62,504 nt of DNA from a virus (IMGVR_UViG_3300021437_000019:1-62504), one strand, 5' to 3'; positions 23,751 to 60,964 are shown, counted from the first letter of the stretch. A program made the numbers and translations. The notes: generated by a model not told the origin, from the letters alone.

Positions 23751-26700
23751 TTATCTGCCAACTGCGATACACGATAAAATATCGCTAGCTGCCCACGGTG
23801 CGGCTACCGCACTGGAATTGAAATTACCGATGGTCGCAGTCGTTGTTGTGGACGCTGTTTGGCGCGTTCTAAAAACCGTCGTAGAAAAAGTTGTTACATC
23901 CTCACAAAATACATTCCAGCCCGACGAAGCAGCGGTGGGGAACCCGATCACTCCGCTTGTGGCCGTCCCGCCCGTTCCGACGTTGATCGTAAAACTGATG
24001 GAATCGTTGGTAACGGGCAGACTAGGTGCTGTTCCAAACCCCGATGAAATTGTTGGTATTCCGCCGATGAATGCGGGGCTGCTCCCGCCGAACGATGCCG
24101 AAGTGGTTCCCAGGTTTAAGACACCCTGAAGGCTATTGCTCGCATTGCTCATCACTAGAGAACCTGAAAACGTTGCCGGGCCGCTTATGGTTCCGCTCAA
24201 CACTGGGGTGGTTAAAGTTGGGCTGGTCAGTGTCTTGTTCGTGAGCGTCTGCGTGGCGGCCAGAAGGGCTAACGTATCCGTTGCGTCAGGCACCGTTAAG
24301 GTGCGGTTCGCCGTGAACGTCCCGCTGATGGTGTTCTTGAACCCGCCACTAAGAACGATTGCGGACGCGTTGATGTTGCTCTGACTGAGGCCGGACGCCA
24401 GAGCCAGGGCCGCCGGTGGGGCGCCTGCCGTGAAACCAAACGTGTCCACCATATTGGTTCCCCAAGCGTTGGGGCCAGCGTTGACCGCGCCTTGTCCCCC
24501 ACCGGGATTGTGACGATACGCTTTGTAGGTTACGGAACCTGTTGGAGCGGCGGGTGGAGTAATCGTGACGGTTTGGTTGCCAGTAGTGGTGGTGACGGTT
24601 ACGTTAGAACTCAAATTGCTTTCGTTTCCGTTTGCGTCAAGCGCGGTCAGTTGGTAGAACCAAGTCCCGACCGGCACGGAGCCGCCAGCGGAAACGACCG
24701 CCGTTGGCGCGGCCGGCGTGCTCATCTGATAGCCGATGGAGCCCAACGTCCCGTTTACCTGCACCGAATTGTTCGAGAAAAATCCAGTACTTAGATTAAC
24801 AACATTTGTGTTCTGTCCTACCGGCCCGCCAGTACTTGTGAAAATCGCCGCTCCCGCCGGACTGCCGGTGATATAAGGCAGGGCGCTCGATGGAGCGCCG
24901 GTGTTGACAAAGAGCGCGCTGGCATTTGAACCGCTCCCTGCTACGGGCAGGTTCGCATACATCGCGTGCGCCATCGTGTCCAACTCATAGTTCTGGAAGG
25001 AATAGAAGCCGCCAATCGTGCCCGCTATGGATGGAATAGCTGTAAACAACGGCATGATCCCACCCTGGATTCTTCCTCCCTTGAGATGGAAGTCTGCGTT
25101 GCTAGATGACGGGGTATAGGCAATCGACCTGCCGCTCATGCTGATGTTATCAAGCAGCGTCTCGCCGCAGAATGAACAAAGGAAGAACGGCGTGGCCGTG
25201 GCTCCCAACGGCGTAACCTGCGGGCTTACGAACGTAATGTTCGTCAGCTTATTGGGGAAGGCTGTGTTGGTGTTCGAGCCGCGCAGCGTCAACCCCACAC
25301 CCGTCTGGTCGGCGTTGGTCGTCCCGCCGAAGAAGTTCACGTTGTCCAGAACGTTGAAATCGCCTTCCAGAAACATCAGGCTGTAGGCGTTGGTCTGGTT
25401 GGTGGTAAACCCTACATTATGGAAGCTGGGAGATGTGGCAGACGTAAACGGCTGATAGATGCCCGGATTCGCCCGGCCAACCGTAATTGCATTCTGCGCT
25501 TCCCATGCGAACGACGGCGCGCCTGCCTGTTGCGGGGTTAGGTTGCCGAACCAACGTTCGTTGCTTCCAGGCTCTACCGTATCGTTCAAGAGCAATGAGC
25601 CAGCCACGTTGACGCCAATAAAACCGCCGAGCGTCAAATAGGAATTCACGACAAACGCTGTCGAAGCAACGGGAATATATAACGTCCCAAAAGTTGTCAA
25701 TCGCGCGGCATTGTGAGCAGCCAAGATGGTGGGGGCGTTGTCGAACAGAATCGTTGCAGCAGCCAGCGTCGCCCCCGCCGTATTCGCCAGCGTCAGCGTC
25801 GTGGTGCCCGCGCCAGATACAATCGTGGTCGAAAGCGAGTTGTTCGTGGCCGCTACTGGCGGCGTCGTAGGCACGAAGTAAGGAGCAAGAAAGCCATCCA
25901 TCATCGGGGAGCCGAAGTCATCCCACGAAAGAGCCGTTGAACCGTTGTCCGGGCTGCTCACGCCCAGCAACGTCAAGGCCCCGCCGGTGCGCCCATAGAT
26001 GTAGTACTTAATCGCTCCTGCAACGCTTGTCCACGTCAGATGGTTGCAGTTGAACCAGTGTGCGTTGCCGCCTGTTACGCCCGCGCCAGTAGGGGCACCC
26101 GAAGCGGTATCCAGCGGCTGAGAGTAGGTGTAGTGGGTCGTGTCCGCAACCGTGACAACCTGAAACCATCCCCCGAAGTTCGTCGTGTCGCTGCTGCCCT
26201 CCTGGTAGACCATCGAACCTACTGAGAGCCCGTGCGCCGCCGTAGTGGTGACGGTCACGGTGGTGCCTGAGCGGGAGTACGAGGTAATAGCGACCTGCTG
26301 TGGGCCGAGCGAAGCCGACCCAATAGCGGTTGTGCCGACCGCGCTGGCCGCTGTCAGCCCACCTGCCTTATTTTGCGCGACGAGCTGGTAGTTATAGGTA
26401 GTCGTTCCGCCAGCCGGAGCCGCAACCGTGAAACCCGTGCCGGTCAGGGCTGCCGCCCGCGAGGGCGTTACCGTTGGCGCGCCCGGCGTGGTCATGGTGT
26501 GGGCCGCTCCTGCGCCAAACACAACCACGCCATCCCCATTCAGAAAGCACACGCTGCTGGTCTGTTGTGCGCAGGTTGCGGTTGAAACTGTCACCGTGGC
26601 CAAGCCAGAGGTCGTACTCGCCGTGATCCCTGGAACAGCGGGAATGTTGGCATTGGACAACAGTGACCGCGCCCCGTAGCGGCGGATGTCTACGTTCGGG

Positions 26701-27380
26701 TTCGGACCTTTGAAGCCCAAGTCCACGTCAAAATTTAACGGACTCGGCGTTGTCACCGGGCTGGTGAGCGGGGTGTTTGTCCCGCACGGACCACTGGCAG
26801 TTGTCAACAGGCCGCCAGTAGATGCTTGGACGCAATTCCCAGCAGTGAGAGTCGAACCCGTGATCGCGGGGCTTGTAACCCCTCCGCTTAATGTGAGTGG
26901 TCCGGGAATGGGGCTGTTCCCCCCATCCTTTCGGATATAGGTGTTGTCTCCTGTCGGCGCAGGAACGGTCGGAACCGTGCTGTTCGGGGTTGCGGTATTC
27001 AAATTGAACAGGCTGCCATTGATCGTGTACGGTTGGCATCGGAACTGCTGGCCCCAATAGAAAATGCAGACTTGATACCACGTGCCACCGGGAAGCGAGG
27101 CACCACCGATCGTGATCGTGTCGTTCCCCTGGACCGTGCCGGAAATGTTCCCGCTGGCGTCGGGCTTGAAGTCCTTGTATGGGACAGCAATGACATTCGT
27201 CGAGGTCACCCGCGGGATGTTGCCGCCGAAGCCGGTGAGCGTGAATCGGACGTAAGTGTTTGAAGCCGTCACGTTCGCAACTCCGGCATCTTTTAGGTTC
27301 CCGCTGACGGTCACTTGAGCACGCAGCCCGAGTGGGGCCAATAGACACACCAGCGCGAGTAGAAGAAAACACCTCTTCAT
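23751..27380 (-). CDS. Tail fibre / tailspike-like protein with signal peptide
   Basis: MKRCFLLLALVCLLAPLGLRA|Q; Thr/Gly-rich; DIRRYGA and beta-helix-like region; TQTLTNKTLTSP. Confidence 0.8.
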   Translation of the reverse strand: MKRCFLLLALVCLLAPLGLRAQVTVSGNLKDAGVANVTASNTYVRFTLTGFGGNIPRVTSTNVIAVPYKDFKPDASGNISGTVQGNDTITIGGASLPGGTWYQVCIFYWGQQFRCQPYTINGSLFNLNTATPNSTVPTVPAPTGDNTYIRKDGGNSPIPGPLTLSGGVTSPAITGSTLTAGNCVQASTGGLLTTASGPCGTNTPLTSPVTTPSPLNFDVDLGFKGPNPNVDIRRYGARSLLSNANIPAVPGITASTTSGLATVTVSTATCAQQTSSVCFLNGDGVVVFGAGAAHTMTTPGAPTVTPSRAAALTGTGFTVAAPAGGTTTYNYQLVAQNKAGGLTAASAVGTTAIGSASLGPQQVAITSYSRSGTTVTVTTTAAHGLSVGSMVYQEGSSDTTNFGGWFQVVTVADTTHYTYSQPLDTASGAPTGAGVTGGNAHWFNCNHLTWTSVAGAIKYYIYGRTGGALTLLGVSSPDNGSTALSWDDFGSPMMDGFLAPYFVPTTPPVAATNNSLSTTIVSGAGTTTLTLANTAGATLAAATILFDNAPTILAAHNAARLTTFGTLYIPVASTAFVVNSYLTLGGFIGVNVAGSLLLNDTVEPGSNERWFGNLTPQQAGAPSFAWEAQNAITVGRANPGIYQPFTSATSPSFHNVGFTTNQTNAYSLMFLEGDFNVLDNVNFFGGTTNADQTGVGLTLRGSNTNTAFPNKLTNITFVSPQVTPLGATATPFFLCSFCGETLLDNISMSGRSIAYTPSSSNADFHLKGGRIQGGIMPLFTAIPSIAGTIGGFYSFQNYELDTMAHAMYANLPVAGSGSNASALFVNTGAPSSALPYITGSPAGAAIFTSTGGPVGQNTNVVNLSTGFFSNNSVQVNGTLGSIGYQMSTPAAPTAVVSAGGSVPVGTWFYQLTALDANGNESNLSSNVTVTTTTGNQTVTITPPAAPTGSVTYKAYRHNPGGGQGAVNAGPNAWGTNMVDTFGFTAGAPPAALALASGLSQSNINASAIVLSGGFKNTISGTFTANRTLTVPDATDTLALLAATQTLTNKTLTSPTLTTPVLSGTISGPATFSGSLVMSNASNSLQGVLNLGTTSASFGGSSPAFIGGIPTISSGFGTAPSLPVTNDSISFTINVGTGGTATSGVIGFPTAASSGWNVFCEDVTTFSTTVFRTRQTASTTTTATIGNFNSSAVAAPWAASDILSCIAVGR

Positions 27381-27390
27381 AAAACACCTC

Positions 27391-27403
27391 TCTAAAGTTT
27401 AGA
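27391..27403. promoter_or_regulatory. TCTAAA-N-TTTAGA palindrome copy
   Basis: TCTAAAGTTTAGA, perfect; immediately 5' of the GAGG SD of the fibre gene. Confidence 0.7.
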
Positions 27404-27465
27404 AGTTGACTTTCGCCGTTTGTTCGTCTTGAAATATCGCGAACTGCGGGCGCAGAATTGCCGTC

Positions 27466-27747
27466 ATGGCACTTACCAAACGGCTTGTCCACCTGCTAAT
27501 AATTTTGACCTGCTACTTTTACGTTCTTCCCGCGGGGTTTGCTTCACTACTTCTCTGGCTGCAGGCCGTCAACGTTGGCCACCAAGAAAGACTCTTCATC
27601 GTCCAAAATCTCCGCATGGCAGCGATTCTTTTACTTGTTGGCTGGCTAGCCTGGACTCTCTATGGCGTTGCGGTCATCGCCGCGCCTGGCGGTCGCCGCG
27701 GGATTGCGGCACTCCGCACCTTCTTCAGTCGTTCCGCTAAAATCTGA
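27466..27747 (+). CDS. Membrane protein antisense to the virion operon
   Basis: Two long hydrophobic segments; fills the gap between giant and fibre genes. Confidence 0.5.
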   Translation: MALTKRLVHLLIILTCYFYVLPAGFASLLLWLQAVNVGHQERLFIVQNLRMAAILLLVGWLAWTLYGVAVIAAPGGRRGIAALRTFFSRSAKI

Positions 27748-30700
27748 TCGCCGATCTGTGCTCTGGCATCCCGCTCGGCTTGGTGAATGGCGTCCTCTGA
27801 CGCCTGAATCTTGTCTTCGTCGCTCATCTGCTTGTATTCTGGTGCATTAAACGTCTGTCGCAGGTAAGATTGCAGGTACGCCCCGCGCAGTTTTTGATAG
27901 CGATCTTGCTCATCTATGGACAATGCCACCTTGTAACCTTCCACCACTAAATGTTTTCCGGCGAAGCCAACATTCTTCAGCCCTAGCTTGTTCAGGCGAT
28001 CAAGTTCTGCGTCAATGGCGCTTTTTGGTTCGTCTTTTGAAAACCCTCCGGGGAACAGGGCCGCGAAACCGCTTGAACCTTCCTTCGTGGAAGGGCGCCC
28101 AAGAGTATCGAGTTTCGGTGCAACCGTTTTGCTCAACACCGGGAGGCCTGCCGCGATTCGTTCATACATCGTTTGCGGATTACGCACCGTAGGATCAAGT
28201 GCATCCCCGAGCGTACGCAGTGCGGACTCCATGGGAACAAACCCGCCGAGCCAACTAGAAACAAGGCGCCCGGAAAAACGTTCGGGATCCTGCATTGCAT
28301 CAAGGCCGCCCTTGAGTCCCCGCAAGAAGGATTCATCGGCGAGCGCCCGCCCCATCGCACCGCCAAATGCTAGAATCTGGTCAGTGGCGGGCATATCATT
28401 TTTCTTTTCGTTTCGGTCATGCCATGCAGCTACCGCCGCCGCCGTCAACGCAAATGGGCCGGCCGCCTTGTACGATACCCACCGGTTTCCAATTTTTATC
28501 GAGTACGGTTGTTTTCCTGAACGGTAGAACTCATCACGTCCAGCGGGATCATTCGGTGCCGCCCCTGTGAGCATTTTCTTGGCAGCAAAGTACGCGAACA
28601 GGCCCACGATGGCAGTACCGATCAGTGCGCGGCTGATGGTCTTTGTCGCTTCCGGGGATTTCGCGTGTTCGAAGTCGTTCAAACGTGCAAAGCCAAAGGG
28701 TGAATATCGGAGGGAGTGCTTCGTCAGATTGTAAGGAATCTGGACAAAGGGGATCACGAACCGCAACGGGTGTAGTCCTCCAATGAGAGGAATTCCCTTT
28801 GGGAGCGCCACTTTGTCGCGCATACTCATCAGGATGCGCGAAAGAACATCCGGGCGTTCCGTGAATGTTTGAAATTCACCGGCCTTCATCGCCGCGTCAA
28901 TCATGTCTTCGGTCGGATGCTGGATCAACTCAGCCGCACGGTTCTTCAACCCTTCGCCCTTCAATCCTTCACTGGCCGCTTGTCTTACTGCTTGGGCGTG
29001 CATCTCTCCTTGAAAGGCGAGCACCTGAAAGAACTTCGTCGCGGCGGAAAGAGCGCGCCCAGGCACGTTGAGCGGGTTCTTGATACCTCCCGGGAATTCG
29101 TACCTGCGCGGCAACTCAAAGGTGAGTGGATCGCCGGTGTCAAACCCGTGCATGATGATGTACGAGGCCTTGCGAATGCCTTCTGGCAGTGCGGATAGAT
29201 AGGATAGCGGCGCAACCAGCGCCTCACGGAGAGTCGTCTCGCTCTTGCGGCCCTGAATTGCCGCCATGATCTTATCCACAGGGACATCAACAAAACGTCG
29301 CGCCGTTTCAACGATCCCGAGCGAAACATCCCCCAACACTTTTTTTATTGGCGTGCGCGGACTTGAAAGCACGTTCGCAATCCAGTAGGCTTCAATCTTC
29401 TGTGCCGTTGTCCAATGCTTCTGCGAACGCAGGAAGTTGTTCAGTGCCACGGAATCATCTTCTGGAATCTCAGCCAACCGCCGCGCGGCGTCTTCGCTCA
29501 ATTCCTTCCCGCCAAGGGCCTCGAGCACGCGCTCATGTGCCGTCTGGTCTTTGCCTTCGAGGGCTTTCGCTACCATCCGTTGCTGTGACAGCGCCCGACC
29601 TGCTTCTGCGACGGCACCGGAAACCGCTTTCTGGATACCATCATGACGCAAGAGAGCTTCCTGGAATGCCAGAACGTTATCAACGTTCCCATTGGTCCTA
29701 ACCTTCGCGGCCGCCTCGCGGACCTTCTGCGCACTGGCGATCAGCATGGATCGCGCCGCCTGCAACTCTTCGGCATTCAGGGCCGTCCCAGCCTTCATGC
29801 TTTTGAGGTCTTTTTCAGTGAACATCCCCTCTTCGACAAGCTTCTTCGCCATGTCACGCGTCTCGTTGAATGGGATACTCCCGCGGCGTTGCTCATTGAA
29901 CTCCGGAGCATTCTCTTTAGCCGCCCTGCGAATCTCGTTGAGTACATCCTCGGGCGCGTTCAGCTTGTCAAGGCGGATGTTGCCCGCGTGTTCCACCGGG
30001 CGCTTGTCAGGCGCGGTTCGGGGAACGCCAGACGATTCAACCCTTGCACCTACTGGAATAGGTTCTCCCGACGCAGGTACGCGTTTGCCGCGAAGTGCCC
30101 TGAATGCCCGATAAATCAGGTGCCCGAGTTCGATAAGTGGATTGAAGCCGAAACCGGCTTCGGGATTCTCCGGGTTGACGATGCGCCGGGGGATTTCGGA
30201 AAGCCCCTCCCCCTCTCCTGGTACGACATGGGAAGGCGCAATCTCTTTGAAATTATCGTCAAACTCCTGCCCCTCGCGGGCGCCGGCCATGGTCTTATCT
30301 TCTTTGTTCACGGCGAGGGCTTCGTTCAACTCCTTCTGCTTGGCAAGCAGTTTGTTGAGTTGCGCCTGCTTGTTAAATGGTTTTTCGAGTTCCGCCTTGC
30401 GCGCTTCCAGGTCGCGCCGCAAGGCTTTAATATCCTCTTCCCTGTTCGCGGCGTAGGTTTCCAGGTTCCCGATGTTCCGCTCTGCGCTCTGGATCGTGCC
30501 AATCGGACTTTCATGATTCACCGTGAATCCGTGCGAGGATTTCCCGTACAGGTAGGGGTTTCCACTTCCATCGGCCTCAATGTCGAATCCCTGGAAGGTT
30601 CCAACCTTCATCCGGCCACTGCCGCGGTTAGCCTCGACGGCAGCATTCAGTGCGGCACCGGCATCCTTCCGGTCGGTGTAGGTTTTCTTCCCAACCGTCA

Positions 30701-33700
30701 TCTGGAATTCTTCGCGCTTGTTTGCATCGCGCGTTTTTATGTCTTGCAGGATGGCGTCCCGTGACGCTTCAGTGCCAGAAATCCGCTCCGGGATCTGCGC
30801 GAGCCGAATCCGGTTCGTGATCGCCGACTGTTCGTGAATCTGTTTCAACTTCTGTAGGCGGTCCACATCGGCATCCGTTTGGACCTTTTCGAGCACGCGC
30901 TTGTCGCCGGTGGCAATCGCGGCCGCCTCGGCATAACTCAGCGTCGCACCGTCCACGTCTTCGAGTTCGCGCTGATCATAGCCGTGCTGCATCATCTCTT
31001 TGATAAAAGACGCCTTGCGCGCGATCGTGCTCCACATATAGGCGTCAAACGTGCCCTGAGTCACGTAGCGATAGATTTGCACGGTTGGGTTGGTATTTCC
31101 TTGCCGGATGATGCGGCCTTCCCGCTGTTCGATGTCTGACGGGCGCCACGGAGCATCTACGTGGTGAAGGGCCAAAAGGCGCTCCTGAATGTTCGTTCCA
31201 ACCCCCATCTTATCGCTCGAACCAATAATGACGGCCTTCTCGCCGGAGTTCACGGCATCGAATAGTGCCTGCTTGGCGGCGTCGCTTTTCGCGTCGTGGA
31301 TGAACGCAACCTGGTCGGCCGGCACGCCCATGCCAACCAGTTTGTTTTTCAGGTCCGCGTAGGCGTTGAACTGGCCGCGTTTCTTCCCGGCATCGCTCGG
31401 GGTCATCAAATCGAGCATGACGGCTTGGGCTCGCTTCGTGCTCCGCGTTTCATGGTAGATGTCGGCAACTTTCTTCGCCGCCGCGGCAATCTTGCTCTCG
31501 CCGTCGTCGTTTGCGCCCGGGACCATCGAGCGGTAGTCTAGCGCGACCTTCCGCCCCTCGCTCGTGATCTTGAGCATATTATCTTCGGTGGGATCGACTT
31601 CTTTCCTGCGGATGGCCTTGGCGCGCTCGCCGAGTGTCTGGATGTAGTCAAGTACCCGCTGGCTGGCGGGAACCTCGATTACCTTCGCCTTCCCGCCCTC
31701 GACGTCCGGCACCTTGACGATGCCCTCCAAGTCCTCCGGGTGAATCACATCGGCGGTCTGCCGGAACATGCGCTTGAGTTCCGGCACGTTCATAAACTTG
31801 GCGAAGCGGGTGCTCACGCGAAACTTTGTCGGATCCTCCGGCGAAACTTCCATGTTCTGTACGGTATTCCCGAAGGCGGCTGCCCAGGAATCGAAGTGCG
31901 ACAGGTTCCCGGCCTCAAGGCGCCCTTCATCGAGATACCGCATCATCGTGTAAATCTCGGCCATGGTGTTGCTGATCGGCGTGCCGGTTGCAAACGCCAC
32001 ATTCGCACCATTGTTCAGGTCGGAAATGTACTTCGTTTTCAAATACATATCGAACGCGCGCTGCGCGTCTGACTTCGGGATGCCATTGATATTCCCCATC
32101 TTCGTCGAGAAGAAGAGGTTCTTATACATATGCGCTTCGTCAACGTAAAGCGCGTCCACGCCGGTATCCTCAAAATTAATGGTGTTGTCTTTGCGTTCCC
32201 TGTTGGCCGCACGCTCCATTCGGACCTTGATGCGCTCTTTGGCCTTCTCCAACTCCTTCACCGTGCGCCGGTTACTCTGCCCGCGCTCGTCTTTCAGTTC
32301 TCGAATGTGATCTTCGAGCATGTCGAGTTGCTTCTGTGCGTAGCGCTGCAAGGTCTCGATGCTGACGGGAAGTAACCCAAAACTCGCGTGTGGAACAATT
32401 ACCGCATCCCAATCGCCAGTGGCAATGCGGCTCATAATCGTCTTGCGATTCTTTGCTTCAAAGTCCTCTTTTGAGGCCGCAAGAATGCGCGCCTGTGGGT
32501 AGAGTCGCAGGAAGTCCGCGCCCCATTGCTCGACCAGGTGGTTCGGAACGACGATCATGGGCTTCTTCGCCAGACCGAGGCGCCTCTTTTCCATGGCCGA
32601 GCCGATGATCGTGTACGTCTTGCCGGCACCGACAACGTGTGCCAGAAGGGTGTTGCCGCCCACAACGCTGCGCCAGATGGCATTCATCTGGTGCGGCCGC
32701 ATGGTGATGCCAGCAGATTTTCCGGGGAGTGTCAGGTGGGAGCCATCATAGTTTCGGTCAACGATGTTGTTCCGATTCTCGTTGTACCACTTCGTTAGTC
32801 GTTCGGCCCGGTCGGGGTCTTTGAACATCCACTTCGAGAACTCTTCCTCGATCTGTTCAAGTTTCTCGCGCGCGGCGAGGGTTTCTTTCTCATTGACGCT
32901 GCGCTTCCCGTCGGCAGCCTCATCATAAACCGTTGGGCGCTTGAGGTTTAACGCACCCTCGATGATCTCCAATGGGCGCATCCGCGCCGTGCCCCACTTC
33001 GTCTGTGCGGCCTCATTGTACCGGGCTTGCCCGTTTTCTAATTTCCAGATCGCTTCGCTCGCAATATGTCGGACGGTCGTGCGGTTGCCGTACCGCTGAT
33101 GACCCAAAATCGCTTCGTCGATGAAGTTCGCGATGTCTTCTTCGGGAATCCACGGCGTACCGAGTCGCACGCTGATCTCGCCGGGTTCTAGGTCTCGCGG
33201 CTGAACCTGCTTCAATGCCTCGACATTTTGCGTGAAGTCTTTGTCCAACTTCGCCGCTTCTTCCGCATCGCGCAGTTTCGCGCGCACGTCGCCAGAGAGG
33301 TATTCATCCTTCGTTTCCCAGTGTCCCTGCGGTGCCTGAAAAGCCAATCCCGCCGCGCGAAGTTCTGTCCTAATCTCGTCTTCTGGCCGCCCGGAAATCT
33401 TCGACATATAATCGAAGTCAATCTTCCCTTTCTCCGCGAGGGATGCCGGGAGCGCGTCCGCGACGTTGTCAACGCTCGTTACTTCCTTCCGCGGCGCGAT
33501 GGTCTGTTTGAAGAACACATCGGCCTTGCTAGCCGTGCGCTCTTTCGCGTTCCACTTCTCAAGCGCCAGAAGTAGCGGTGCGTCTGGATCTTCTGCGACG
33601 ATCCGGTAATTCTTTGGCTGGTTGAGGTAGCCGTGTTTCTTGACAAAAGCATCGTAGGCGCGGTTCAGGCGGCCGCGGATCGCCGTCAAGTCTTTCCCTG

Positions 33701-51215: not shown

Positions 51216-52264
51216 TGAACGGTCTCGCGCACGCCAATCTTCTCGAGGATGACCGTCAACCGCTTCTCAAGCGAGTGCTTTTCGTGGACCTCGCGGCATC
51301 CTTCTGCGGCGATCCGTTCGCGCTCTTCGGCCTTCTCGTCGCTTGGCCACTCCCTCAGAAGTTGCGCCACGTAAGGCAAGTTGCTCGATCTGTAATAGAC
51401 GAGGTGGCGACCAGATTCGAACGCTTCCTGGTTCTTCGAGATACCACGGTCGGCACTCAACTGCGGGGTAAGGAGAAACGTTCCGCACGCCATAACCTCG
51501 TAAATCTTCGTCACCAGCAACGCGCTCATCGCCGGCAGGTTGAAGAATACCTTCACGCGCCTGTAGTTCTCGACCAGACGCCGCACGCTCTCTTCCGAGC
51601 AGTACCCGCTCAGGTCGTTGATGGACACGTTGCCAATCCGGATCGGCGGATGGTCATGTTGGCTCAGGGCTTGCAGGAAGCGCCCGCGCTTCTCGTAGAC
51701 CAGGCCAACGAAAGCGATGGGCCAAGTCTTTTCGTAGTTCAGGCGACCGTGCTTGTCGATTACGTTATCCTCACGATCGCCGAGTCGGCACGGTCTGAAC
51801 ATTTCCGTATCCACCCCAAACGGCAACCAGTGAACGTGCCCCTTGCCGAACATCTCCTGGTCGAGCCATTCGGCATCCTGGTACGCCGGCACGAAGTTCT
51901 CGTCGGCCCACATGCTCACGCTGTCCCAATCAAGCGTGTAGTCGGCGCGGTGCATCGTCTCGTGCCACCAAGCCGCCTTCGGGACGCCGATATTCTTCCA
52001 TTCGTACTTCGTGTAGACAGCATCCAGCCACGGGGCGATGTGCTCCGGACCGCTCACCAAGATTGCGTCGCACTTCTTGAGGGTATCCAGCGCTGGCAGT
52101 TGCGCCTTGATGCCTTCAAACACTCGTTGTGGCATCTCGGCACCCGCTCCCGGCATCTCGCCGGGCACCACCTCGTGCCCCATGCGCCGAAGCGTGGTCA
52201 CCAAGCCGTTGCTCATCGACCATGCTGCGTACTGCGACTTCGGGTATAGCACCGCGATTCTCAT
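51212..52264 (-). CDS. GT-B glycosyltransferase (CgeB-like)
   Basis: WLPFGVD, IAFVG..Y..R, KIYEVMACGTFLLT, H....R. Confidence 0.88.
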   Translation of the reverse strand: MRIAVLYPKSQYAAWSMSNGLVTTLRRMGHEVVPGEMPGAGAEMPQRVFEGIKAQLPALDTLKKCDAILVSGPEHIAPWLDAVYTKYEWKNIGVPKAAWWHETMHRADYTLDWDSVSMWADENFVPAYQDAEWLDQEMFGKGHVHWLPFGVDTEMFRPCRLGDREDNVIDKHGRLNYEKTWPIAFVGLVYEKRGRFLQALSQHDHPPIRIGNVSINDLSGYCSEESVRRLVENYRRVKVFFNLPAMSALLVTKIYEVMACGTFLLTPQLSADRGISKNQEAFESGRHLVYYRSSNLPYVAQLLREWPSDEKAEERERIAAEGCREVHEKHSLEKRLTVILEKIGVRETVQ

Positions 52265-52777: not shown

Positions 52778-53354
52778 CCTGTCCGGCCAGACCCTTCACG
52801 CCGGGGCCCTTCGGCTCCTGGTGAGCCGGTTCGGCTAACTTCGCCGCGGAATCGGCCGCCCTCCCAACGTGTTCAACCATGTCGGCGGTATGCTTCACGG
52901 TGCTCATAATGCCCGTGCCTTCCGTTGGCAGGCCCACGGCACTGAGAATCGCCGCCTGAACGTCGGCAGACAACTCTTCGAACTTTGCTGTGACGTTGAA
53001 ACCGATCTTCACTGGCGGCGCTTGCGGCTGAGGCGCTGGTGCCAAACCCTCTTCCGGGGAAATTCCCGGTACTGACTTGAGATACGCGGCCGCGATCCCG
53101 CGAACGTTGAATACTTGGGGAGCACTCAGCGCCAACGCCAAGAGCTGCTGCAAACTTTTCGTCCGGTAGGAATCGTCATCAGCCAGCGTCGAACCTTCCT
53201 CGGGTTCAATCTGGAACTCTTCCTGAATGTCCATCGGGTCGATGCGAATCGTTCGCGGGTTTCCACCCGGAGTATTCGCGCTGAGAGCCTCAACGGTCGT
53301 CTTTTGCTGTGGCTCCTGCGGTGGTTGCGGTGGTCCCGGCGGCATCGTACTCAT
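52755..53354 (-). CDS. Portal protein, C-terminal fragment
   Basis: IDPMDIQEEFQIEPEEGSTL..LQQLL..P..NV resembles portal wing/crown segments; AAGGGG SD and ATGA overlap. Confidence 0.65.
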   Translation of the reverse strand: MSTMPPGPPQPPQEPQQKTTVEALSANTPGGNPRTIRIDPMDIQEEFQIEPEEGSTLADDDSYRTKSLQQLLALALSAPQVFNVRGIAAAYLKSVPGISPEEGLAPAPQPQAPPVKIGFNVTAKFEELSADVQAAILSAVGLPTEGTGIMSTVKHTADMVEHVGRAADSAAKLAEPAHQEPKGPGVKGLAGQGAGSADS

Positions 53355-55006
53355 TGCTGTGCCCCTTGATTCTTAAAGAGTTGATCGATGCGCTGGTTTT
53401 GCCCCAAAGGAATCTCGGCAGCATCTTCCATGGCCTGTTGATTGAACCACAGCCACAACTCCAAAGTGTCTCGAATGAACTGGCCCATGTTGTTCAACTC
53501 ATCGGCTAGCACCGCATCGGCGCCCTGCTTCTGCAGGAGTGCCGTTGTTGCCAGCTTCCCGCTCTGCGGCACACCCTCCGTCCCGGGCTGGTAGTCGTTC
53601 ATCCCGGGCTCGACCTGCTGCATCTCTCGAATCCACTGCGCCTGATCCTGCAACGCTTCTGCGGGGAAAGGCGGATCCTGCTGGAACTCCAATTCGGCCA
53701 TGTTCCGCACTTCTAGGATGCGGGCGAAAGAGGTCCGAATTAGATTCGCATCCGTGATGTTGCCGCCCTCCAACTTCTTGAGTAACGGGAGGAGCTTGTT
53801 GTTGATGAAGTCCGTCGTCTGATTCGCGCGCGAGTTCCGCAACTGCATCAGGAACCGGCTGATCCGCAATGTCGAGTCGCCAATCCCCTCGATCATGTCA
53901 GGGATCAGCACCATCTCCGTGTAGGTGTAGCGTCCGTAAGTCTCCCACGGGAACCACAGCCTGCCGAGGTTGATATTCTCCTCGCCAACAAAGTCGATGG
54001 CTAAACGGCCATCCACAACGCTTTGCCGTTCGTCAACCATGAACCGCTTCCGCGGCGGCTTTAACGGCCTGCCAGCAGTACGCGGATCGGCAATCGCTAC
54101 CGCTTCGCGCATCGCCCGGCGCAAGCTGATCGATTTTTCGTCGATGTAGTTCCGGTCGCCAGCCGCGTCAAGCACCTCTTGGGCCTTCTTTGGATCAATC
54201 ACCGGAGATTTCTCGCCCGTCTCGGGATCTTCGCTTTCCTGACGCGTCCAGTAATCGAGCCACTGTTCATCGCGGATGCTGTTCTCGATCACATAGGCCG
54301 ACTCGTTCAGCGAACGGAAGCCGGGCTCGAGGAACGAATCACCGGCAAACACGTAATCAAGCTTCGAGCCCTCGTACTTCGTGACCGGAATACCCAAACT
54401 TACCCGATCGCCATGCTCGGCAATGGCCTGCGAAATCTGAACCTCGTTCGGTTGCGCACCCTGCTTCTCGGCGTGGGCAATCTCGTCCTCGGGAGCGCCC
54501 TGCAAGCGCATCAGATCGCCCATGCTCAACTTCGAAGTCACCCTCTTCAGGCGCCGCGTTACCACCACCTTGTCGTAATAGTTCTTTCCAAGGCACCATC
54601 CAAACGCGCGCGCACAGTTAATGACCTTCCGGAAAGCTAGTTGCGATTCACTTTTGTCCCACTGCCACATCAACAACGCTGCGGCCTTGTCGGACTGCCC
54701 GGGCTGGCCGCCACGCAACCGGAGATTCGGGGCGTTGCGCGTCAGCCGTGCTACGCCATGCCGATGCATCACGAAATGGTCTGGCAGGCAGACGTTTGAC
54801 CGCGACTTGTCCTCAACCTCTTCGCCTTTCTGGTTCGTCCGCATGATCGGTCGCACGCGAGCTTTCAGGTTCCGGTAAATCTCCGTCCACTCGTCGTAAT
54901 AGTTGTTCTGCATGTAGCGCTGAGATGCTTTGCGCTGCTCGAGAATCTCTGCGGCCGTGTCATCCGTCACCTTGTCGATTACCGCTGCACTTTGGTTGTC
55001 AGCCAT
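53351..55006 (-). CDS. Portal protein, main part
   Basis: FGWCLGK, EGIG, Q..N...NQ..D, LATTA..Q clip region; P22-like size and position. Confidence 0.85.
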   Translation of the reverse strand: MADNQSAAVIDKVTDDTAAEILEQRKASQRYMQNNYYDEWTEIYRNLKARVRPIMRTNQKGEEVEDKSRSNVCLPDHFVMHRHGVARLTRNAPNLRLRGGQPGQSDKAAALLMWQWDKSESQLAFRKVINCARAFGWCLGKNYYDKVVVTRRLKRVTSKLSMGDLMRLQGAPEDEIAHAEKQGAQPNEVQISQAIAEHGDRVSLGIPVTKYEGSKLDYVFAGDSFLEPGFRSLNESAYVIENSIRDEQWLDYWTRQESEDPETGEKSPVIDPKKAQEVLDAAGDRNYIDEKSISLRRAMREAVAIADPRTAGRPLKPPRKRFMVDERQSVVDGRLAIDFVGEENINLGRLWFPWETYGRYTYTEMVLIPDMIEGIGDSTLRISRFLMQLRNSRANQTTDFINNKLLPLLKKLEGGNITDANLIRTSFARILEVRNMAELEFQQDPPFPAEALQDQAQWIREMQQVEPGMNDYQPGTEGVPQSGKLATTALLQKQGADAVLADELNNMGQFIRDTLELWLWFNQQAMEDAAEIPLGQNQRIDQLFKNQGAQQ

Positions 55007-55838
55007 GAATTTTGGGTTGTGCGCGGGCTGCGTTGTCTTGCGACCTATCCCGAATCAGAAGTGCAGTCTGGTCGTCTAGCTGTTCGAGTTTCTGGCGCTT
55101 GTTAATTCCCATGGGAGCCGCACCCCCAGCCACCGCCGGGTAAAAGGCCACAATACAAGCGCGCCAGAAATTGGAGGTAGCTCCGGCATTCCACGTCGCA
55201 TTGGTCGCGCTTCCGCCCCCTCCCACGAGGATGCGGTCTTCGTCCGCAAAGCCTGTCGAGGTGTCATTGTCGAGCAGAGTGAAGCTCGTTCCCGCCCCGA
55301 CGATGGCGGTGCTGTAGGTCAGCGACGAATAAATAAGCGCGTTGTCGTTCGCCGGGGTGATATTCGCCGACGTGTAAGTGCCCGAGCCGCTTCCATTCGC
55401 CGTGTTGTCCGCTGGCCCCAGGACGGTGCTGTTTGTAATCGCCCCTTTCCAACTGGAGGCCGTCATGGCCAGGAACGTGGCAGCGGCGCTCAACGTTACC
55501 GTGATGGTTACGGAGCCCCCGCCAGAGTTGGCAAAATACCAACTCTGGGTGATCTGACCGATGTTCGTGTCGTTGACCGACGCGATGGCCACGGGATAAT
55601 TCCCCGCGTTCACGTTATCGGCGCAGGTCGCGGTAGGCGTCCCAGCGTTGTTCCAAGTGGCGGAGACAACGATCAGGTCGCCCGCCGTCACCGCCAGCGT
55701 CACCGAAAGGGTGGAAGCTGAAACGCTCCCATTGTCCGCCCCGCCGTGCGTGTCTGGAGTAATGGCCGCTTCTGAAGGAAATGCTCCTAGTAGAAGTAGC
55801 AGGGCGATAAGCACCGCTTTCTTCATACAACTTTTCAT
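54999..55838 (-). CDS. Signal-peptide Thr/Ala-rich beta protein
   Basis: MKKAVLIALLLLLGAFPSEA|A; VTAGDLIVV; start 55838 or 55826. Confidence 0.7.
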   Translation of the reverse strand: MKSCMKKAVLIALLLLLGAFPSEAAITPDTHGGADNGSVSASTLSVTLAVTAGDLIVVSATWNNAGTPTATCADNVNAGNYPVAIASVNDTNIGQITQSWYFANSGGGSVTITVTLSAAATFLAMTASSWKGAITNSTVLGPADNTANGSGSGTYTSANITPANDNALIYSSLTYSTAIVGAGTSFTLLDNDTSTGFADEDRILVGGGGSATNATWNAGATSNFWRACIVAFYPAVAGGAAPMGINKRQKLEQLDDQTALLIRDRSQDNAARAQPKIHG

Positions 55839-58633
55839 AGCCCCGTCGTCTCTATCCATTGAAAGGTGATATTGAAAGAGCTGCCCGTTACCGTCACGCC
55901 GTTCAAGTTCACGGCAAGCTGTTGTGTTGTTCCGCGAAGCGCAACCGACTGGCCCATTCCAGGTTTCCAGATGTAAATATCGGACGGAGTCGCTGTTCCT
56001 GGGGCCATGCAACCCAATTTTGCGCTATCCACGTTACCGACCGCCGTGCCCACTGTCGGATTCGCGGTGTAGGTTAGGGGCGCTGAAACAGCAGCCGCAT
56101 CATTCGAATCCAACGGCACAATCGTCATGGCCGACGAAGTTCCAAGCGTATCCGCCGTGGACCGCTTGATAAGTTGCAGGTCGATGATGCCAGCGGTTGT
56201 CTGCGTGCAGGTGACTTGAACACGCGTGACGAGTACCGTGTTCGTCGCGTTGCCCGGAAGGATTGCTATATCGGTGGCGGATGCCACTGACGCCAAACCA
56301 ACCTTGTTGGCTGCATAAGTGGTCAGGTCCGTCTCGGGCAGTACCGTAGAACGAAGAACGCCGTGCAGGCCAGTATTCAGCGCAGCATCCCGGCCAGCCG
56401 TCGCTGCGGCAGGAAGATTCGTTCGCGCAATTGCTGGAAGCGTGCCAAGGCGATTCGTGGCCGCCGCAACTCCATTATCCGCCAGCGTTCCAGCGAGCGA
56501 GGAATCATTCGAAACGGTCACCCGTGGAATGCCTGCGCCGCTAGCGCCCGTACCGGTTACGACTCCAGACCCACCAACTTGTGCAAGGTTGACGCTTTGG
56601 TTGGCGGATAGTGCCCCAATCGTGTTTGTACCCGCTGCCAGGGAAACCGTAGGAGCCGCTTCGACAGGTGCGGCGCTGAGAGTGATCCCAACGTTTGCCG
56701 TTCCTGACGTCCACGCGCTTGCCCTTACGCGGAAATTGCTGGCTGCATATACGGAGCAGTTCCACGCCCTCGTTTGGTTGGAAGGAAGGGCTTCGCTGCC
56801 TTCTTGAATCGAAGTGTCTGTCCGGGTACAGGTATCGCTGTACCAGATCGTGCCGCCATCATCGGAAAATTCAAAGTTGATCGTGACGCCAGCATAAGTT
56901 CCATTCACCGTCACCGTGGATACGCCGTAGCCATTGACTGTTACCGGGCCGACCACTGAAGTCGCGGAAGTGACCGTCCCGGTTGTCCTGGTCGGCTGCG
57001 CCATCGAAATGCCGCTCGTTGTTCCAGCGGTGGTCTGGTCAATACCGACCTTCCCAACGATTGCCGCGCCAGCGACCAATCCAACGGTTGAATCATTGGA
57101 CACAGTGACGCGCGGGATCCCCGTTCCAGAAGCTCCCGTTCCCGTGGCTACTGCCACGCCACCGAACTGTGTAACGTTAGTTGAAGCGTTCGCTGGAGGA
57201 GAGGTTGTTACCGTCCCACTGACCGGCTGAGTGACCGCACTACCATCAACCTTCCACGCGGTCGTATTGGCCGTGTTGCCAGGTTGGACCGTCCAAGTGC
57301 CGCCTTGATTCGCGGTTACGGCCCCTGATACCGGCTGTGTAACACCCGAACCATCCACCGGTAACCTGCCAGCAACCGGCGTGTACTGCGCCAAATTCAC
57401 CCCGCCGATCGTGTTCGCACCGGTCGGCAGAGCACTCGTGATATTCGCCAGCACTGCGCTCAGGTTCGGAGAGCCAAGCGCCTGCGGAATGACGTTAACA
57501 TTCGCCGTTCCCGCTCCAGTGATTACCGTCGAGAGCCGTACGCGGAAGTTTGTGTACCCGCCAACGGCAAAAGTCCAGCTTTGATTCGCGCCCGTCAGCG
57601 TGTACGTTGTCTCAAAAGCGCCAGCATCGCCACGCACGCCCGCCTTTGCGTACCACGTTGTGTTGTCCGGGCTAACCTCAAACGTTACTGCGCCACCAGT
57701 GATACTTGAACCGTTGAAGGATACTGTGACCGTGGATCGCTGCGACACCGCCGCGGAAAGTGCCGTATTCAGTGCCGTCGCACTTGTCCATGCCGTCGTC
57801 GAAGCCGTGTCCTGATTGGGCGACACGATCGGGTCAGCAAACGTCGCCGTGCCATCGGCATTCGAGATGGGAACCTGCCCAGCCACTCCCTTATTCGTCG
57901 AGCCGATGAGCAGGCGATCCGCGCCATTCACCCAGGCGTGCCACACTCCATCCGTTGAATTCTGCCCAATGTCACCGTTCGCCGAAGTGGTAAGCCCTGT
58001 ACCCACGCGCAGCTTGAAGAATGTCGCGCCGGTGAAATCCCAACTATTGCCCGAGGCACTGAAAGCGCCAGCATTGACGTTTGCCGCCGCGGTAATCGCG
58101 CTCCATGCCGTGCTCGCAGTGCTCGCCGAGGAAATTGCCATCGTACTGCCCGATGGCGTGCATGTGATGTTTGTCGAGCACTGAATCGAGAAAGGGGCAG
58201 CATAGGTCTTGAGCGTTGCGCCACCGCTATCTTTGAACTTGATAACGTCAATTTGTGCGTGGGCTGGCCGAGCCAGTAGCAAGCCTAGGATTCCCAAAAC
58301 GCCAAGCAGCAGTATGATCCGCCACACCCACAAAAGCCGCCGATCACGGTCAATGCGCCGCACAAATTCAGGGTGCGCTTTTGGCCTTACGTGCTGACGC
58401 CATGCCACGCGCGCAACTGCCCGGGCAATGGCCTCGTCCTGTGTGTGATCTTCATGTTGACGGCGCACGTGGATGTATTCGGCCAGTACCGCATCCCGCG
58501 GCAAACTCATTTTCGCAGGAAGTTCAGTGAAGCCCATCGCTCGCATGGTATTCGCCACGTGTGTCGGATAATGGCCTTCTTCGATCAGCGCGAGGACGGC
58601 TTCTATTGGCCCTTTGGTGAAAGATGCGTTCAC
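55835..58633 (-). CDS. Fibre-like protein with internal signal sequence
   Basis: About 100-aa N-terminal domain, then LLWVWRIILLLGVLGILGLLLARPAHA|Q; VDGS.VTQPVSG twice and TGTGASG.GIPRVTVSNDS twice. Confidence 0.75.
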   Translation of the reverse strand: MNASFTKGPIEAVLALIEEGHYPTHVANTMRAMGFTELPAKMSLPRDAVLAEYIHVRRQHEDHTQDEAIARAVARVAWRQHVRPKAHPEFVRRIDRDRRLLWVWRIILLLGVLGILGLLLARPAHAQIDVIKFKDSGGATLKTYAAPFSIQCSTNITCTPSGSTMAISSASTASTAWSAITAAANVNAGAFSASGNSWDFTGATFFKLRVGTGLTTSANGDIGQNSTDGVWHAWVNGADRLLIGSTNKGVAGQVPISNADGTATFADPIVSPNQDTASTTAWTSATALNTALSAAVSQRSTVTVSFNGSSITGGAVTFEVSPDNTTWYAKAGVRGDAGAFETTYTLTGANQSWTFAVGGYTNFRVRLSTVITGAGTANVNVIPQALGSPNLSAVLANITSALPTGANTIGGVNLAQYTPVAGRLPVDGSGVTQPVSGAVTANQGGTWTVQPGNTANTTAWKVDGSAVTQPVSGTVTTSPPANASTNVTQFGGVAVATGTGASGTGIPRVTVSNDSTVGLVAGAAIVGKVGIDQTTAGTTSGISMAQPTRTTGTVTSATSVVGPVTVNGYGVSTVTVNGTYAGVTINFEFSDDGGTIWYSDTCTRTDTSIQEGSEALPSNQTRAWNCSVYAASNFRVRASAWTSGTANVGITLSAAPVEAAPTVSLAAGTNTIGALSANQSVNLAQVGGSGVVTGTGASGAGIPRVTVSNDSSLAGTLADNGVAAATNRLGTLPAIARTNLPAAATAGRDAALNTGLHGVLRSTVLPETDLTTYAANKVGLASVASATDIAILPGNATNTVLVTRVQVTCTQTTAGIIDLQLIKRSTADTLGTSSAMTIVPLDSNDAAAVSAPLTYTANPTVGTAVGNVDSAKLGCMAPGTATPSDIYIWKPGMGQSVALRGTTQQLAVNLNGVTVTGSSFNITFQWIETTGL

Positions 58634-58635
58634 GC

Positions 58636-58914
58636 TCAATCTTCCTCTTGGGCCAAGGTAATCGTGCCCGTAACTGCTTTCACGTATCCAACCACATCGC
58701 CTGGGTTCCAAAATACCCCTGGGCTGCGTTCGAATTCTTTTTTAGACCCTGCTGGCTTGGTAATCTGCGCGTCGTTCGCGGTGGGTGCCGCAAGAATCCA
58801 GTCCGTTGTGCCCGCTTGGTCGTTTTCGTATATCGTGACCTTGCGACAGACAGACTGCACCGTAACCGCGTGGAGACTGAGATTGTCCACGCTCATCGTG
58901 AAGGTTTTCGCCAT
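58636..58914 (-). CDS. Small beta-rich protein
   Basis: MAKTFTMSVDN...; ATG abuts the upstream stop (TGATG). Confidence 0.6.
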   Translation of the reverse strand: MAKTFTMSVDNLSLHAVTVQSVCRKVTIYENDQAGTTDWILAAPTANDAQITKPAGSKKEFERSPGVFWNPGDVVGYVKAVTGTITLAQEED

Positions 58915-59420
58915 CAATGCTTCTTGGGCATTCTCTGATACACCGCAAACCAGTCGGTTGCGATGTCGTGCTGGGCTTTGGCCAGCGGGATGCGACCGGA
59001 GCAGACTTCTCGGTGTAGCCAGTTCTCGACGGCGTCTTTCTCGTGCGCGCCTGGGCGCGGTTCGTAGGGTTGCGGCCAAAGGTTCTTCACATCATCGGCC
59101 CCACCGAGTTCAAGGCTGATCAGGTGGTCAACTTCACAACAGATGCCAGGCTTCTTTTTCGCGCCATATTGCGCATAGACCCTGTTCTTCATCGCCTCGG
59201 TGGTATGACGAAACTGCTTTGTTGACCCGCCACCGCAGACCGCCTTGGCGTCCGTCGTGCGCACCGCACCGGGCGTCACAGTAACATCATTGAGCAGGGC
59301 ACCCGTGCCAACCCGGTAATGCGCCTCCTGTGCCGCGGCCACCAACGCCACCACCAAGAGAATTGCAAGCAACGACAGGGCATCCAGCAACAGCATGTGG
59401 TAGGTGCGGGGCTGCTTCAT
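58914..59420 (-). CDS. Signal-peptide HNH-like nuclease
   Basis: Hydrophobic N-terminus; TPGAV, EVDHLISLELGGADDVKNLWPQ, KDAVEN.LH..VC. Confidence 0.8.
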   Translation of the reverse strand: MKQPRTYHMLLLDALSLLAILLVVALVAAAQEAHYRVGTGALLNDVTVTPGAVRTTDAKAVCGGGSTKQFRHTTEAMKNRVYAQYGAKKKPGICCEVDHLISLELGGADDVKNLWPQPYEPRPGAHEKDAVENWLHREVCSGRIPLAKAQHDIATDWFAVYQRMPKKH

Positions 59421-59740: not shown

Positions 59741-59744
59741 GCTG

Positions 59745-60125: not shown

Positions 60126-60131
60126 AATCGC

Positions 60132-60377: not shown

Positions 60378-60386
60378 GAACTCTCC

Positions 60387-60626
60387 TTATTGAAAGAGGG
60401 GCTTAGTGCCGAACATCACTTGCTCAACCTCAAGGATGTCGTAAACCTTGCCAGCCTGCAGCGCTATATTCGCGTTGATTACCGCTGAAAGCGTTGGCGG
60501 ATCCTGCCCTGCGGCCACAACAATGGCTTCCACGGGATCCCTGCGGTACACGTCCGCTTTCGTGTCTCCCTGGGTCGTGTCCGGCAAATGAACCTGGTAA
60601 GTGACTTGATAAATATTGTTTGCCAT
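60387..60626 (-). CDS. Hypothetical protein, paralog of 60132-60377
   Basis: GGAGGAG SD; aligns with its neighbour. Confidence 0.7.
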   Translation of the reverse strand: MANNIYQVTYQVHLPDTTQGDTKADVYRRDPVEAIVVAAGQDPPTLSAVINANIALQAGKVYDILEVEQVMFGTKPLFQ

Positions 60627-60628
60627 GC

Positions 60629-60964
60629 TCACTCCTCCTCAAAACGAATTCCCTTCACCTCAAAGACTTGCTCACCCGCAGCGCATGTCAGCGTCAGCGT
60701 TGTAACCGTTGCCGGTTGGTCTTTTTCGATCACTGTGTGCGTGTCGCGACCGGGAATGCACAGGAAAATGTCTCCTTGACCTAGGGCCCGCGGCCCCTTC
60801 TTGAGTTGCACTTCAATCTTTACGGGCAGGATCGGCTGAAACACTGCCACATTGTGCTTTAAATCGTTTCCAACGAACTTGAACGCGCAAGATGAAGAGC
60901 CGGCACGTACCTGCCACGAGGCCAGCAAGAGCAATAAGACGCCGATACATGCCACCCTCTTCAC
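60629..60964 (-). CDS. Signal-peptide hypothetical protein
   Basis: MKRVACIGVLLLLLASWQVRA|G. Confidence 0.6.
   Translation of the reverse strand: MKRVACIGVLLLLLASWQVRAGSSSCAFKFVGNDLKHNVAVFQPILPVKIEVQLKKGPRALGQGDIFLCIPGRDTHTVIEKDQPATVTTLTLTCAAGEQVFEVKGIRFEEE

Follow-up and report, generated by a model that had tools for sequence, protein, structure and literature searches.

Why should proteins that resemble parts of a tailed-phage virion begin with signals for export? The question is raised by the viral sequence IMGVR_UViG_3300021437_000019:1-62504, a whole assembly of 62,504 nucleotides that constitutes the window analyzed here, in which seven late proteins, among them a tailspike-like protein of 1209 amino acids (the spike) and a fibre-like protein of 932 amino acids, carry an N-terminal leader or an internal signal. 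The leaders are of the Sec type, real and specific, and do not arise from wrongly chosen start codons. To judge from sequence, the proteins that bear them are very probably exported, given that the leaders are canonical and conserved, that leaderless forms begin at the predicted mature residue, that cysteine pairs accompany the leader, and that cellular relatives are exported. Whether exported proteins, at least the spike, end up on virions is a matter on which we lean only tentatively towards a positive answer. All seven genes lie on the minus strand, and arrows mark predicted cleavage sites:

23751–27380, minus strand: spike, 1209 amino acids; Sec leader at residues 1–21 (27318–27380), LRA↓Q; N-domain of about 115 residues with a cysteine pair, depolymerase-like beta-helix core at about 220–1010, C-terminal part of low model confidence
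48651–49130, minus strand: 159-amino-acid protein starting from the ATG at 49130; leader, GYA↓Q; small beta domain with two cysteines
49169–49579, minus strand: 136-amino-acid protein; leader, VEG↓Q; 90-amino-acid beta domain with a cysteine pair
54999–55838, minus strand: 279-amino-acid protein; leader at residues 1–24, SEA↓A; LamG/jelly-roll-like domain; the gene overlaps the start of the portal-like gene
55835–58633, minus strand: fibre-like protein, 932 amino acids, starting from the GTG at 58633 behind a Shine–Dalgarno-like motif and found in the same 932-amino-acid form in public call P0121; helical N-domain at 9–81, long helix at 88–120 including a membrane segment, AHA↓Q after residue 126, then beta domains including a XepA/YomS-like one at 266–385, a repeat-rich region of low confidence and a C-terminal domain
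58914–59420, minus strand: HNH-like protein, 168 amino acids; hydrophobic N-terminus, AAA↓Q, either leader or anchor
60629–60964, minus strand: 111-amino-acid protein; leader, VRA↓G

Sec-type leaders and cysteine pairs

Leaders were called with a rule of our own, used in place of SignalP or another trained predictor, which demands a net positive n-region, an uncharged core of eight residues above a hydropathy threshold and small residues at positions −3 and −1; counts given as "by eye" are visual readings and not products of the rule. The gene calls are also our own, and several gene names were assigned from position and sequence by eye. The control set comprised 219 pseudo-N-termini beginning at internal methionines. 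In its strict form the rule accepted 6 of the 61 called proteins and 0 of the 219 controls; in its loose form it accepted 9 of 61 and 4 of 219, and the three extra calls are weak, one of them (6296–6937) resembling a membrane anchor of the spanin type. The six strict calls are exactly the proteins to which a preliminary description of this DNA had assigned plain leaders at the minus-strand coordinates listed above, and the internal signal that it had placed after a domain of roughly 100 residues in the 932-amino-acid protein was found again as a membrane helix followed by AHA↓Q. It had also located all seven genes in the morphogenesis region, which is borne out, as all seven are among the 34 late-region genes and the strict rule was passed by 0 of the 27 early-region genes. 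By eye, no lipobox (cysteine at +1) is present at any of the seven predicted sites; some cellular relatives of the spike (L064, L066) look like lipoproteins. Searches of Pfam, PHROGs and NCBIfam returned nothing for six of the seven proteins. The exception is the HNH-like protein, with no PHROG or NCBIfam match and a Pfam HNH match below threshold (E 0.033, 14.8 bits against a cut-off of 21.4); its earlier designation as an HNH gene therefore depends on this sub-threshold match and a motif seen by eye, and the leader claimed for it does pass the strict rule, although its hydrophobic stretch is longer than in the other leaders and may be an uncleaved anchor.

The starts of the 1209-, 159-, 136- and 932-amino-acid genes and of the HNH-like gene have Shine–Dalgarno-like motifs in front of them, and public gene calls, made independently, give the same N-termini (P0001, P0121, P0149, P0169). 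An alternative GTG that would provide the 932-amino-acid protein with a plain leader is not preceded by such a motif. The two arginines before the membrane helix of this protein were considered as a Tat signal, a reading that was rejected because they are not conserved in relatives.

In all four families tested (those of the 1209-, 932-, 136- and 279-amino-acid proteins) leaders are kept in homologues, and all four also have leaderless forms in other genomes, which begin exactly at the predicted mature domain. For the spike, 56 or 57 of 119 relatives (those listed among 141 found) have a leader by the rule, which misses several that are obvious by eye, and relatives in 27 IMG/VR viral loci have one in 13 cases by eye, two of the loci (L011 and L012) having the same protein start. 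In the 136-amino-acid family the leader is present in 12 of 20 members, and the 8 leaderless members start exactly at the mature domain. The 279-amino-acid family has 431 matches, mostly viral in the Atlas, with a predicted LamG-like fold and viral neighbors; among the 149 best of these matches, standalone relatives of 300 amino acids or less carry a leader in 40 of 97 cases, and the leaderless ones begin at the domain. The 27 relatives of the 932-amino-acid protein comprise 10 in which an N-domain of about 100 amino acids, marked by a shared motif, is followed by a membrane helix and an AHA↓Q-type site, 8 with a plain leader, 7 with no signal in the first 170 residues and 2 that are unclear, so that 18 of 27 have either a leader or the domain and helix. 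The 111-amino-acid protein has kept its leader in the one relative seen (7824–8147 in L037), and the Atlas neighbors of the 159-amino-acid protein are viral, with a weak likeness to tail-fibre tips that we regard as a lead only. Within this genome, none of the seven proteins has a leaderless paralogue, and no leaderless fibre-like protein was recognized.

The presence of paired cysteines follows the leader in two families. Exactly two cysteines are found in the 90-amino-acid domain of all 12 leader-bearing 136-amino-acid homologues, in two pair geometries, and the 8 leaderless ones all have none or one. In the N-domain of the spike, at least two cysteines are present in 12 of 12 leader-bearing forms, again in two geometries, and none in 2 of 2 leaderless forms; in P0084, a leaderless protein, both N-domain cysteines are replaced by serine, the domain otherwise being 60–70% identical to its leader-bearing kin. 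Such a coupling is expected if leader-bearing forms fold in an oxidizing compartment. The mature parts of the seven proteins contain 2, 2, 2, 6, 4, 3 and 11 cysteines; the capsid protein and a 3440-amino-acid late protein contain none, and the scaffold-like protein one. A Fisher test on the 136-amino-acid family (p 8e-6) was set aside as overstated, because the leader-bearing forms make up one clade, and tests on cysteines in whole proteins were dropped as evidence, the spike's own cysteine columns not following the leader in alignment A1.

Two explanations would make export unnecessary. That the leaders result from wrong start codons or from chance hydrophobic N-termini has a certain basis in the use of our own gene calls and our own leader rule and in the position of the 159- and 279-amino-acid genes, which lie inside longer open frames with upstream TTG starts; we nevertheless attach next to no weight to it in view of the clean strict-rule controls, the Shine–Dalgarno-like motifs at most chosen starts, the identical N-termini in independent public calls, and the conservation of leaders in dozens of homologues. 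Alternatively, the hydrophobic N-termini might stay on the proteins, for example to hold fibres at the membrane, on its cytoplasmic side, during assembly, or to enter the membrane of the host upon infection. The long hydrophobic stretch of the HNH-like protein could serve as such an anchor, and the 932-amino-acid protein has a conserved N-domain ahead of its membrane helix, yet six of the N-termini are complete in their n-, h- and c-regions, positions −3 and −1 being occupied by small residues, leaderless homologues begin precisely where the mature protein is predicted to start, the cysteine pairs occur only in leader-bearing forms, and most relatives of the 932-amino-acid protein have an AHA↓Q-type site after the membrane helix, all of which makes retention of the hydrophobic segments improbable. 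The preliminary description had proposed that these proteins are exported, and this part of its proposal gains support from the conserved leaders, the leaderless forms starting at the mature domain, the cysteine pairs in two families and the leader-bearing cellular relatives of the spike; its further suggestion, that exported parts join particles during or after lysis, has observations both for and against it, which are set out below.

The spike and the 932-amino-acid protein

In the AlphaFold2 model of the spike (md88b18b425f4), the predicted local distance difference test score (pLDDT) is mostly above 85 over mature residues 200–990, where the chain forms a parallel beta-helix with inserted beta domains. 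The best PDB matches of this core are phage tailspikes (CBA120 TSP2, K2-2 TSP, the Kp9 fibre, HK620, P22 and LKA1), and secreted bacterial beta-helix enzymes, including AlgE4 and WceF, also appear among the structural matches; the core is thus predicted, on the model, to be a tailspike beta-helix. The likeness to the tailspikes CBA120 TSP2, Klebsiella K2-2 TSP, HK620 and P22 extends from the right-handed parallel beta-helix (the best Foldseek matches, E 1e-5 to 5e-3) to the location in the tail-fibre slot after internal virion proteins and to an N-terminal module that is conserved ahead of a swappable distal part. The difference lies in the Sec-type leader in front of the N-domain; these tailspikes are not known to carry a leader and are assembled in the cytoplasm.

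The N-domain is 50–81% identical across proteins with unrelated C-termini, a pattern that on sequence resembles the behavior of a virion-anchor module. The beta-helix core, in turn, recombines freely: a minimum of 16 changes in leader state is required on a tree of 62 cores, equal to the number for shuffled labels, and the nearest relatives of the spike core, at 62% identity, are leaderless and have other N-termini. In element L041 (5965–8324), a remnant of 78 amino acids, in a different frame, lies ahead of the leaderless spike relative P0084. It contains a leader and the beginning of the spike N-domain and looks like a scar of recombination or decay; the element also carries a serine recombinase.

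The spike gene sits in the position of a tail-fibre gene, after the giant internal protein of 3440 amino acids and before a transglycosylase, in a T7-like order, and in L044 a leader-bearing spike with the N-domain again follows a relative of the giant protein. A 1765-amino-acid short form of the giant protein is found in L038 (4262–10791), an element with recombinases and terminase genes and no spike downstream, which may be a satellite or a remnant. In six IMG/VR loci with leader-bearing spikes, the neighbors include major tail, major head, DNA-ejection, integrase and endolysin families and the spike closes the structural block; the leader-bearing spikes are phage genes. A single-protein scan of IMG/VR for spike relatives found none, and tblastn searches of GenBank phages with the 1209-amino-acid spike and a 958-amino-acid protein gave no match. 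In bacterial genome bins, 13 of the 21 loci examined (of 30) contain a spike relative with a leader by the rule, and about six more do so by eye; some of these relatives belong to SU10-like prophages, as in L052, where a SU10_adaptor Pfam match, on the counterpart of the adaptor-like gene, lies two genes upstream.

Leaders cluster by phage. Large leader-bearing neighbors accompany leader-bearing spikes in L005 (2134, 1191 and 135 amino acids), L017 (five consecutive genes) and L020 (680, 1525 and 655 amino acids), and eight loci with a leaderless spike contain no further large leader-bearing proteins. Among neighbors of at least 300 amino acids, a leader is present in 7 of 56 in leader-spike loci versus 2 of 72 in other loci (p 0.04), and at a limit of at least 80 amino acids the values are 16 of 217 versus 8 of 225 (p 0.09). 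The block in L017 (6042–20537) holds leader genes for 133, 767, 2247, 1422 and 125 amino acids, more than 4,600 residues in all, is broken only by a 77-amino-acid frame and directly precedes a possible holin; it is the largest such block among the loci examined.

The model of the 932-amino-acid protein has a mean pLDDT of 53 and comprises a four-helix N-terminal domain, a long helix with a membrane segment and a well-modelled beta sandwich at residues 266–385. This sandwich shares its fold with XepA and with YomS of SPbeta (PDB 6I56, 6I5O), matching the XepA C-domain and YomS with Z scores of 15.1 and 14.4 and a root mean square deviation of 2.0–2.5 Å over 108–109 residues, and the next entry has a Z score of 9.1. 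The C-terminal 250 amino acids are 50% identical to the end of the leader-bearing 2134-amino-acid protein of L005. XepA of PBSX is described as a phage late protein that lacks a transmembrane domain, is exported beyond the membrane and is absent from mature particles (PMC6834076). It belongs to the lysis cassette of a Gram-positive defective prophage, whereas in the phage described here the XepA-like domain is one module of a membrane-anchored protein encoded between terminase and portal genes, outside the lysis cassette in that its gene is not beside the transglycosylase.

Possible docking on virions or action in the envelope

Where would the exported proteins act? We rank first, as a tentative choice, an export followed by docking, because the spike occupies the fibre slot, its N-domain is anchor-like, no other fibre or spike gene was recognized, and a cultured Cellulophaga phage provides a comparable record. 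The steps we infer are translocation, cleavage, disulfide formation and, above all, attachment to particles. Late in infection, the spike, the 932-amino-acid protein and their small beta-sandwich partners would be made as ordinary Sec substrates; the leaders would carry them across the inner membrane, and signal peptidase I would cut at the AxA-type site, mostly leaving an N-terminal glutamine. Folding and trimerization would take place in the oxidizing periplasm, where the cysteine pairs could form disulfides and where the waiting proteins could begin to work on polysaccharide of the host cell itself. Once the inner membrane is breached by the lysis proteins, finished but fibreless particles would meet concentrated periplasmic spikes, and at least the 1209-amino-acid spike would dock through its conserved N-domain. 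More generally, and with a like degree of caution, some tailed phages of diderm hosts, here a short-tailed phage of Acidobacteriota, might follow a two-compartment route in which heads and tails are made in the cytoplasm and the spike, fibres and partners in the periplasm, docking occurs at lysis, and before lysis the periplasmic proteins strip polysaccharide from the dying cell.

In the Cellulophaga phage phi46:3, four consecutive large entries named "structural protein" (gp079–082, KC821622) and the gene after them have Sec-type leaders ending in A↓Q or S↓Q, and 0 of 15 other late proteins checked has one. This likeness, leaders on proteins annotated as structural in a phage that has been cultured, stands beside clear differences, since the host is a member of the Bacteroidota and no sequence similarity to the proteins of this genome was found; moreover, the annotation was made by similarity to phi18:3. 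The annotation reportedly goes back to the virion proteomics of Holmfeldt and colleagues (2013).

It is also possible, and in our view only slightly less likely than docking, that the exported proteins never reach virions and form an accessory arsenal confined in its action to the envelope of the infected cell. In that case, by trimming or destroying exopolysaccharide or receptor from within, the depolymerase might favor release and keep progeny or rival phages from adsorbing, the fibre- and lectin-like proteins might bind envelope glycans, the nuclease might meet incoming DNA, and the XepA-like protein might help lysis, while the true receptor binder would be an unrecognized leaderless protein, for example the nozzle. 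Several observations fit this explanation and weigh against docking. The 932-amino-acid protein contains a domain matching XepA, which is reported to be exported yet missing from particles. No fibre role is possible for an HNH-like nuclease that bears a leader. The closest relative found (L037), with a portal protein 64% identical, terminase pieces 71–76% identical and the leader-bearing 111-amino-acid gene kept, lacks the HNH-like, 932- and 279-amino-acid genes between the same flanking genes, and this block is therefore dispensable there. Leader-bearing cellular relatives of the spike core, WceF-like in this respect, reside in polysaccharide-synthesis clusters (L053, L058, L066) together with glycosyltransferases, FkbM methyltransferases and an epimerase, acyltransferase or UDP-glucose dehydrogenase, and L039 has a leader-bearing spike relative among genes that by eye are not phage-like; an exported life without any virion thus exists. 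Further points count against docking. The first 200 mature residues of the spike, which include the N-domain, are modelled with a confidence too low for a fold search; the leader-bearing 136-amino-acid forms are a single clade on the tree, which leaves the cysteine link with about three independent contrasts, all pointing one way; the cysteine density of whole spikes differs weakly, at 1.42 versus 1.22 per 100 amino acids (p 0.017, not corrected for kinship), and a cysteine parity test on whole spikes shows nothing. Textbook assembly of tailed phages is cytoplasmic, and we know of no described route by which periplasmic proteins join tailed particles made in the cytoplasm.

Against a purely envelope-bound role, it would leave the phage without any recognizable fibre or spike, and the spike gene occupies the canonical fibre slot and encodes a modular, anchor-like N-domain. 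Leaderless homologues of the 136-amino-acid protein are encoded, in L035 and L036, between a 403-amino-acid gene that by eye is a capsid gene and an adaptor-like gene; the spike core has its nearest relatives among leaderless proteins with other N-termini; and in the Cellulophaga phage, proteins with leaders are annotated as structural. Both explanations may hold for different genes, with a spike that docks and a dispensable HNH-like/932/279 block that is accessory.

Phage-encoded exported late proteins and exported tailspike-like proteins are both already known kinds. The second kind is represented by WceF of Pantoea stewartii (PDB 6TGF), which is a trimeric tailspike-like beta-helix with a Tat signal, is encoded in a chromosomal exopolysaccharide biosynthesis cluster, and is exported to act on the cell's own exopolysaccharide (PMC7949094). 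WceF is a structural match of the spike, and cellular spike relatives share its genomic setting; the spike itself differs in having a Sec-type leader and a separate N-domain and in being encoded in a phage late operon and not in a cellular polysaccharide cluster. The MAT fibres of Bdellovibrio bacteriovorus combine a signal peptide, a conserved N-domain and a variable fibre (PMC10769870), a layout also seen in the spike family as far as the order of parts goes, and the Bd2133 fibre is at rank 33 in the structural list for the 932-amino-acid model. They are, however, cellular proteins of a predator, and many carry an S74 chaperone-protease domain, which family searches did not find in the proteins of this genome. 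One study notes that phage target proteins of diversity-generating retroelements lack the leaders of their bacterial counterparts (PMC6199706), and another gives leaders on 5% of prophage carbohydrate-active enzymes, tail fibres excluded (PMC13507307). The paper on the first Acidobacteriota phage isolates (Tunturi) makes no mention of signal peptide, transmembrane, tail fibre, tailspike or mass spectrometry (PMC11924767). Full-text literature searches found no paper on leader-bearing tail fibres or on a periplasmic step in tailed-phage assembly, in keeping with the earlier statement that no such pathway has been described; XepA, WceF, the MAT fibres and the Cellulophaga record are partial precedents.

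If the exported proteins are the spike and fibres of the virion, assembly of tailed phages is not always purely cytoplasmic and can include a late extracytoplasmic docking step; fibres could then bear disulfides or other periplasmic modifications, receptor-binding proteins of this kind could misfold when expressed in the cytoplasm for structural studies or engineering, and it would be a mistake, in annotation, to count a leader as an argument against a place in the virion. Should the exported proteins have no such place, the phage devotes a large exported arsenal, more than 2,900 residues here, to remodelling the envelope of the infected cell, and its receptor binder has gone unrecognized. In both cases the pattern can be tested in culture, and the Cellulophaga phage record has the same leaders on proteins annotated structural.

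Genome, gene order and host

The window is the complete genome, about 61.8 kb long and circular or terminally redundant, of a short-tailed soil phage. Bases 1–300 recur at 61848–62147 with 97% identity, from which completeness and this length follow. The full terminal overlap measures 657 bases (1–657 and 61848–62504) and is just 97% identical across the first 300, which may mean either that two variants were joined when a circular genome was assembled or that the terminal repeats differ. Nearly all genes are on the minus strand. The late genes have a T7/SU10-like order, running from the terminase pieces through small genes and the HNH-like, 932- and 279-amino-acid genes to the portal-like gene; then come glycosyltransferase, radical SAM and methyltransferase genes, the 136- and 159-amino-acid genes, an acidic scaffold-like gene, capsid, adaptor-like and nozzle-like genes, small internal proteins, the 3440-amino-acid protein, the spike, a 106-amino-acid gene and the transglycosylase. 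The portal, scaffold, adaptor and nozzle names were given from position and sequence by eye. The other principal genes of this order are:

53351–55006, minus strand: portal-like gene, 551 amino acids, named from position only; 64% identical to its counterpart in L037
45893–47107, minus strand: major capsid protein of the SU10 type (Pfam PF17236, E 1.6e-32)
42877–43578, minus strand: adaptor-like gene, 233 amino acids, without leader, named from gene order and sequence by eye
40924–42873, minus strand: nozzle-like gene, 649 amino acids, without leader, named in the same way
27660–37982, minus strand: DarB-like/helicase protein with an internal-virion-protein segment, 3440 amino acids, named from family searches; directly upstream of the spike
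22747–23178, minus strand: SLT-type lytic transglycosylase without leader (Pfam SLT, E 2e-11), the likely endolysin, downstream of the spike

Pfam and PHROG searches gave no family match for the portal-like, adaptor-like and nozzle-like genes, and the capsid protein has distant matches only in GenBank phages, at 24–30% identity. Family searches also name a radical SAM/SPASM enzyme, a methyltransferase, a glycosyltransferase and several HNH endonucleases, and on the other arm a DnaB-type helicase, a replication initiator, RusA- and RuvC-like resolvases, endonuclease VII and the SLT transglycosylase. In species-representative genomes, spike relatives are almost all from Acidobacteriota (Terriglobia, 'Acidoferrales'), and the relatives point to hosts in this phylum.

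Several further features were observed. The glycosyltransferase, radical SAM/SPASM and methyltransferase genes (49576–52264) lie between the portal-like gene and the 136- and 159-amino-acid leader genes, and the first two are kept in the relative L037; a link of this cluster to maturation of the exported neighbors is possible. The HXS paper of 2026 reportedly concerns a periplasmic effector against phages whose maturation depends on a radical SAM enzyme. The large terminase (1221–1934, and 61651–62472 running into 2–718) is apparently interrupted by an HNH/NUMOD4 homing-endonuclease gene at 697–1242, and in L037 the terminase pieces (5738–6469 and 6584–7498) adjoin, without such an intervening gene. 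The 213-amino-acid protein at 6296–6937 has an N-terminal membrane helix, a long helical region and a weak DUF2570 match, and is adjoined by a short membrane protein with two helices, obtained when 5475–5831 is read from an internal ATG; the two look like a spanin and a holin, placed far from the transglycosylase at 22747–23178. In the replication region, a 27-base unit repeated in tandem at least 11 times (17997–18401), corresponding to a nine-residue repeat, forms the start of a 589-amino-acid open frame.

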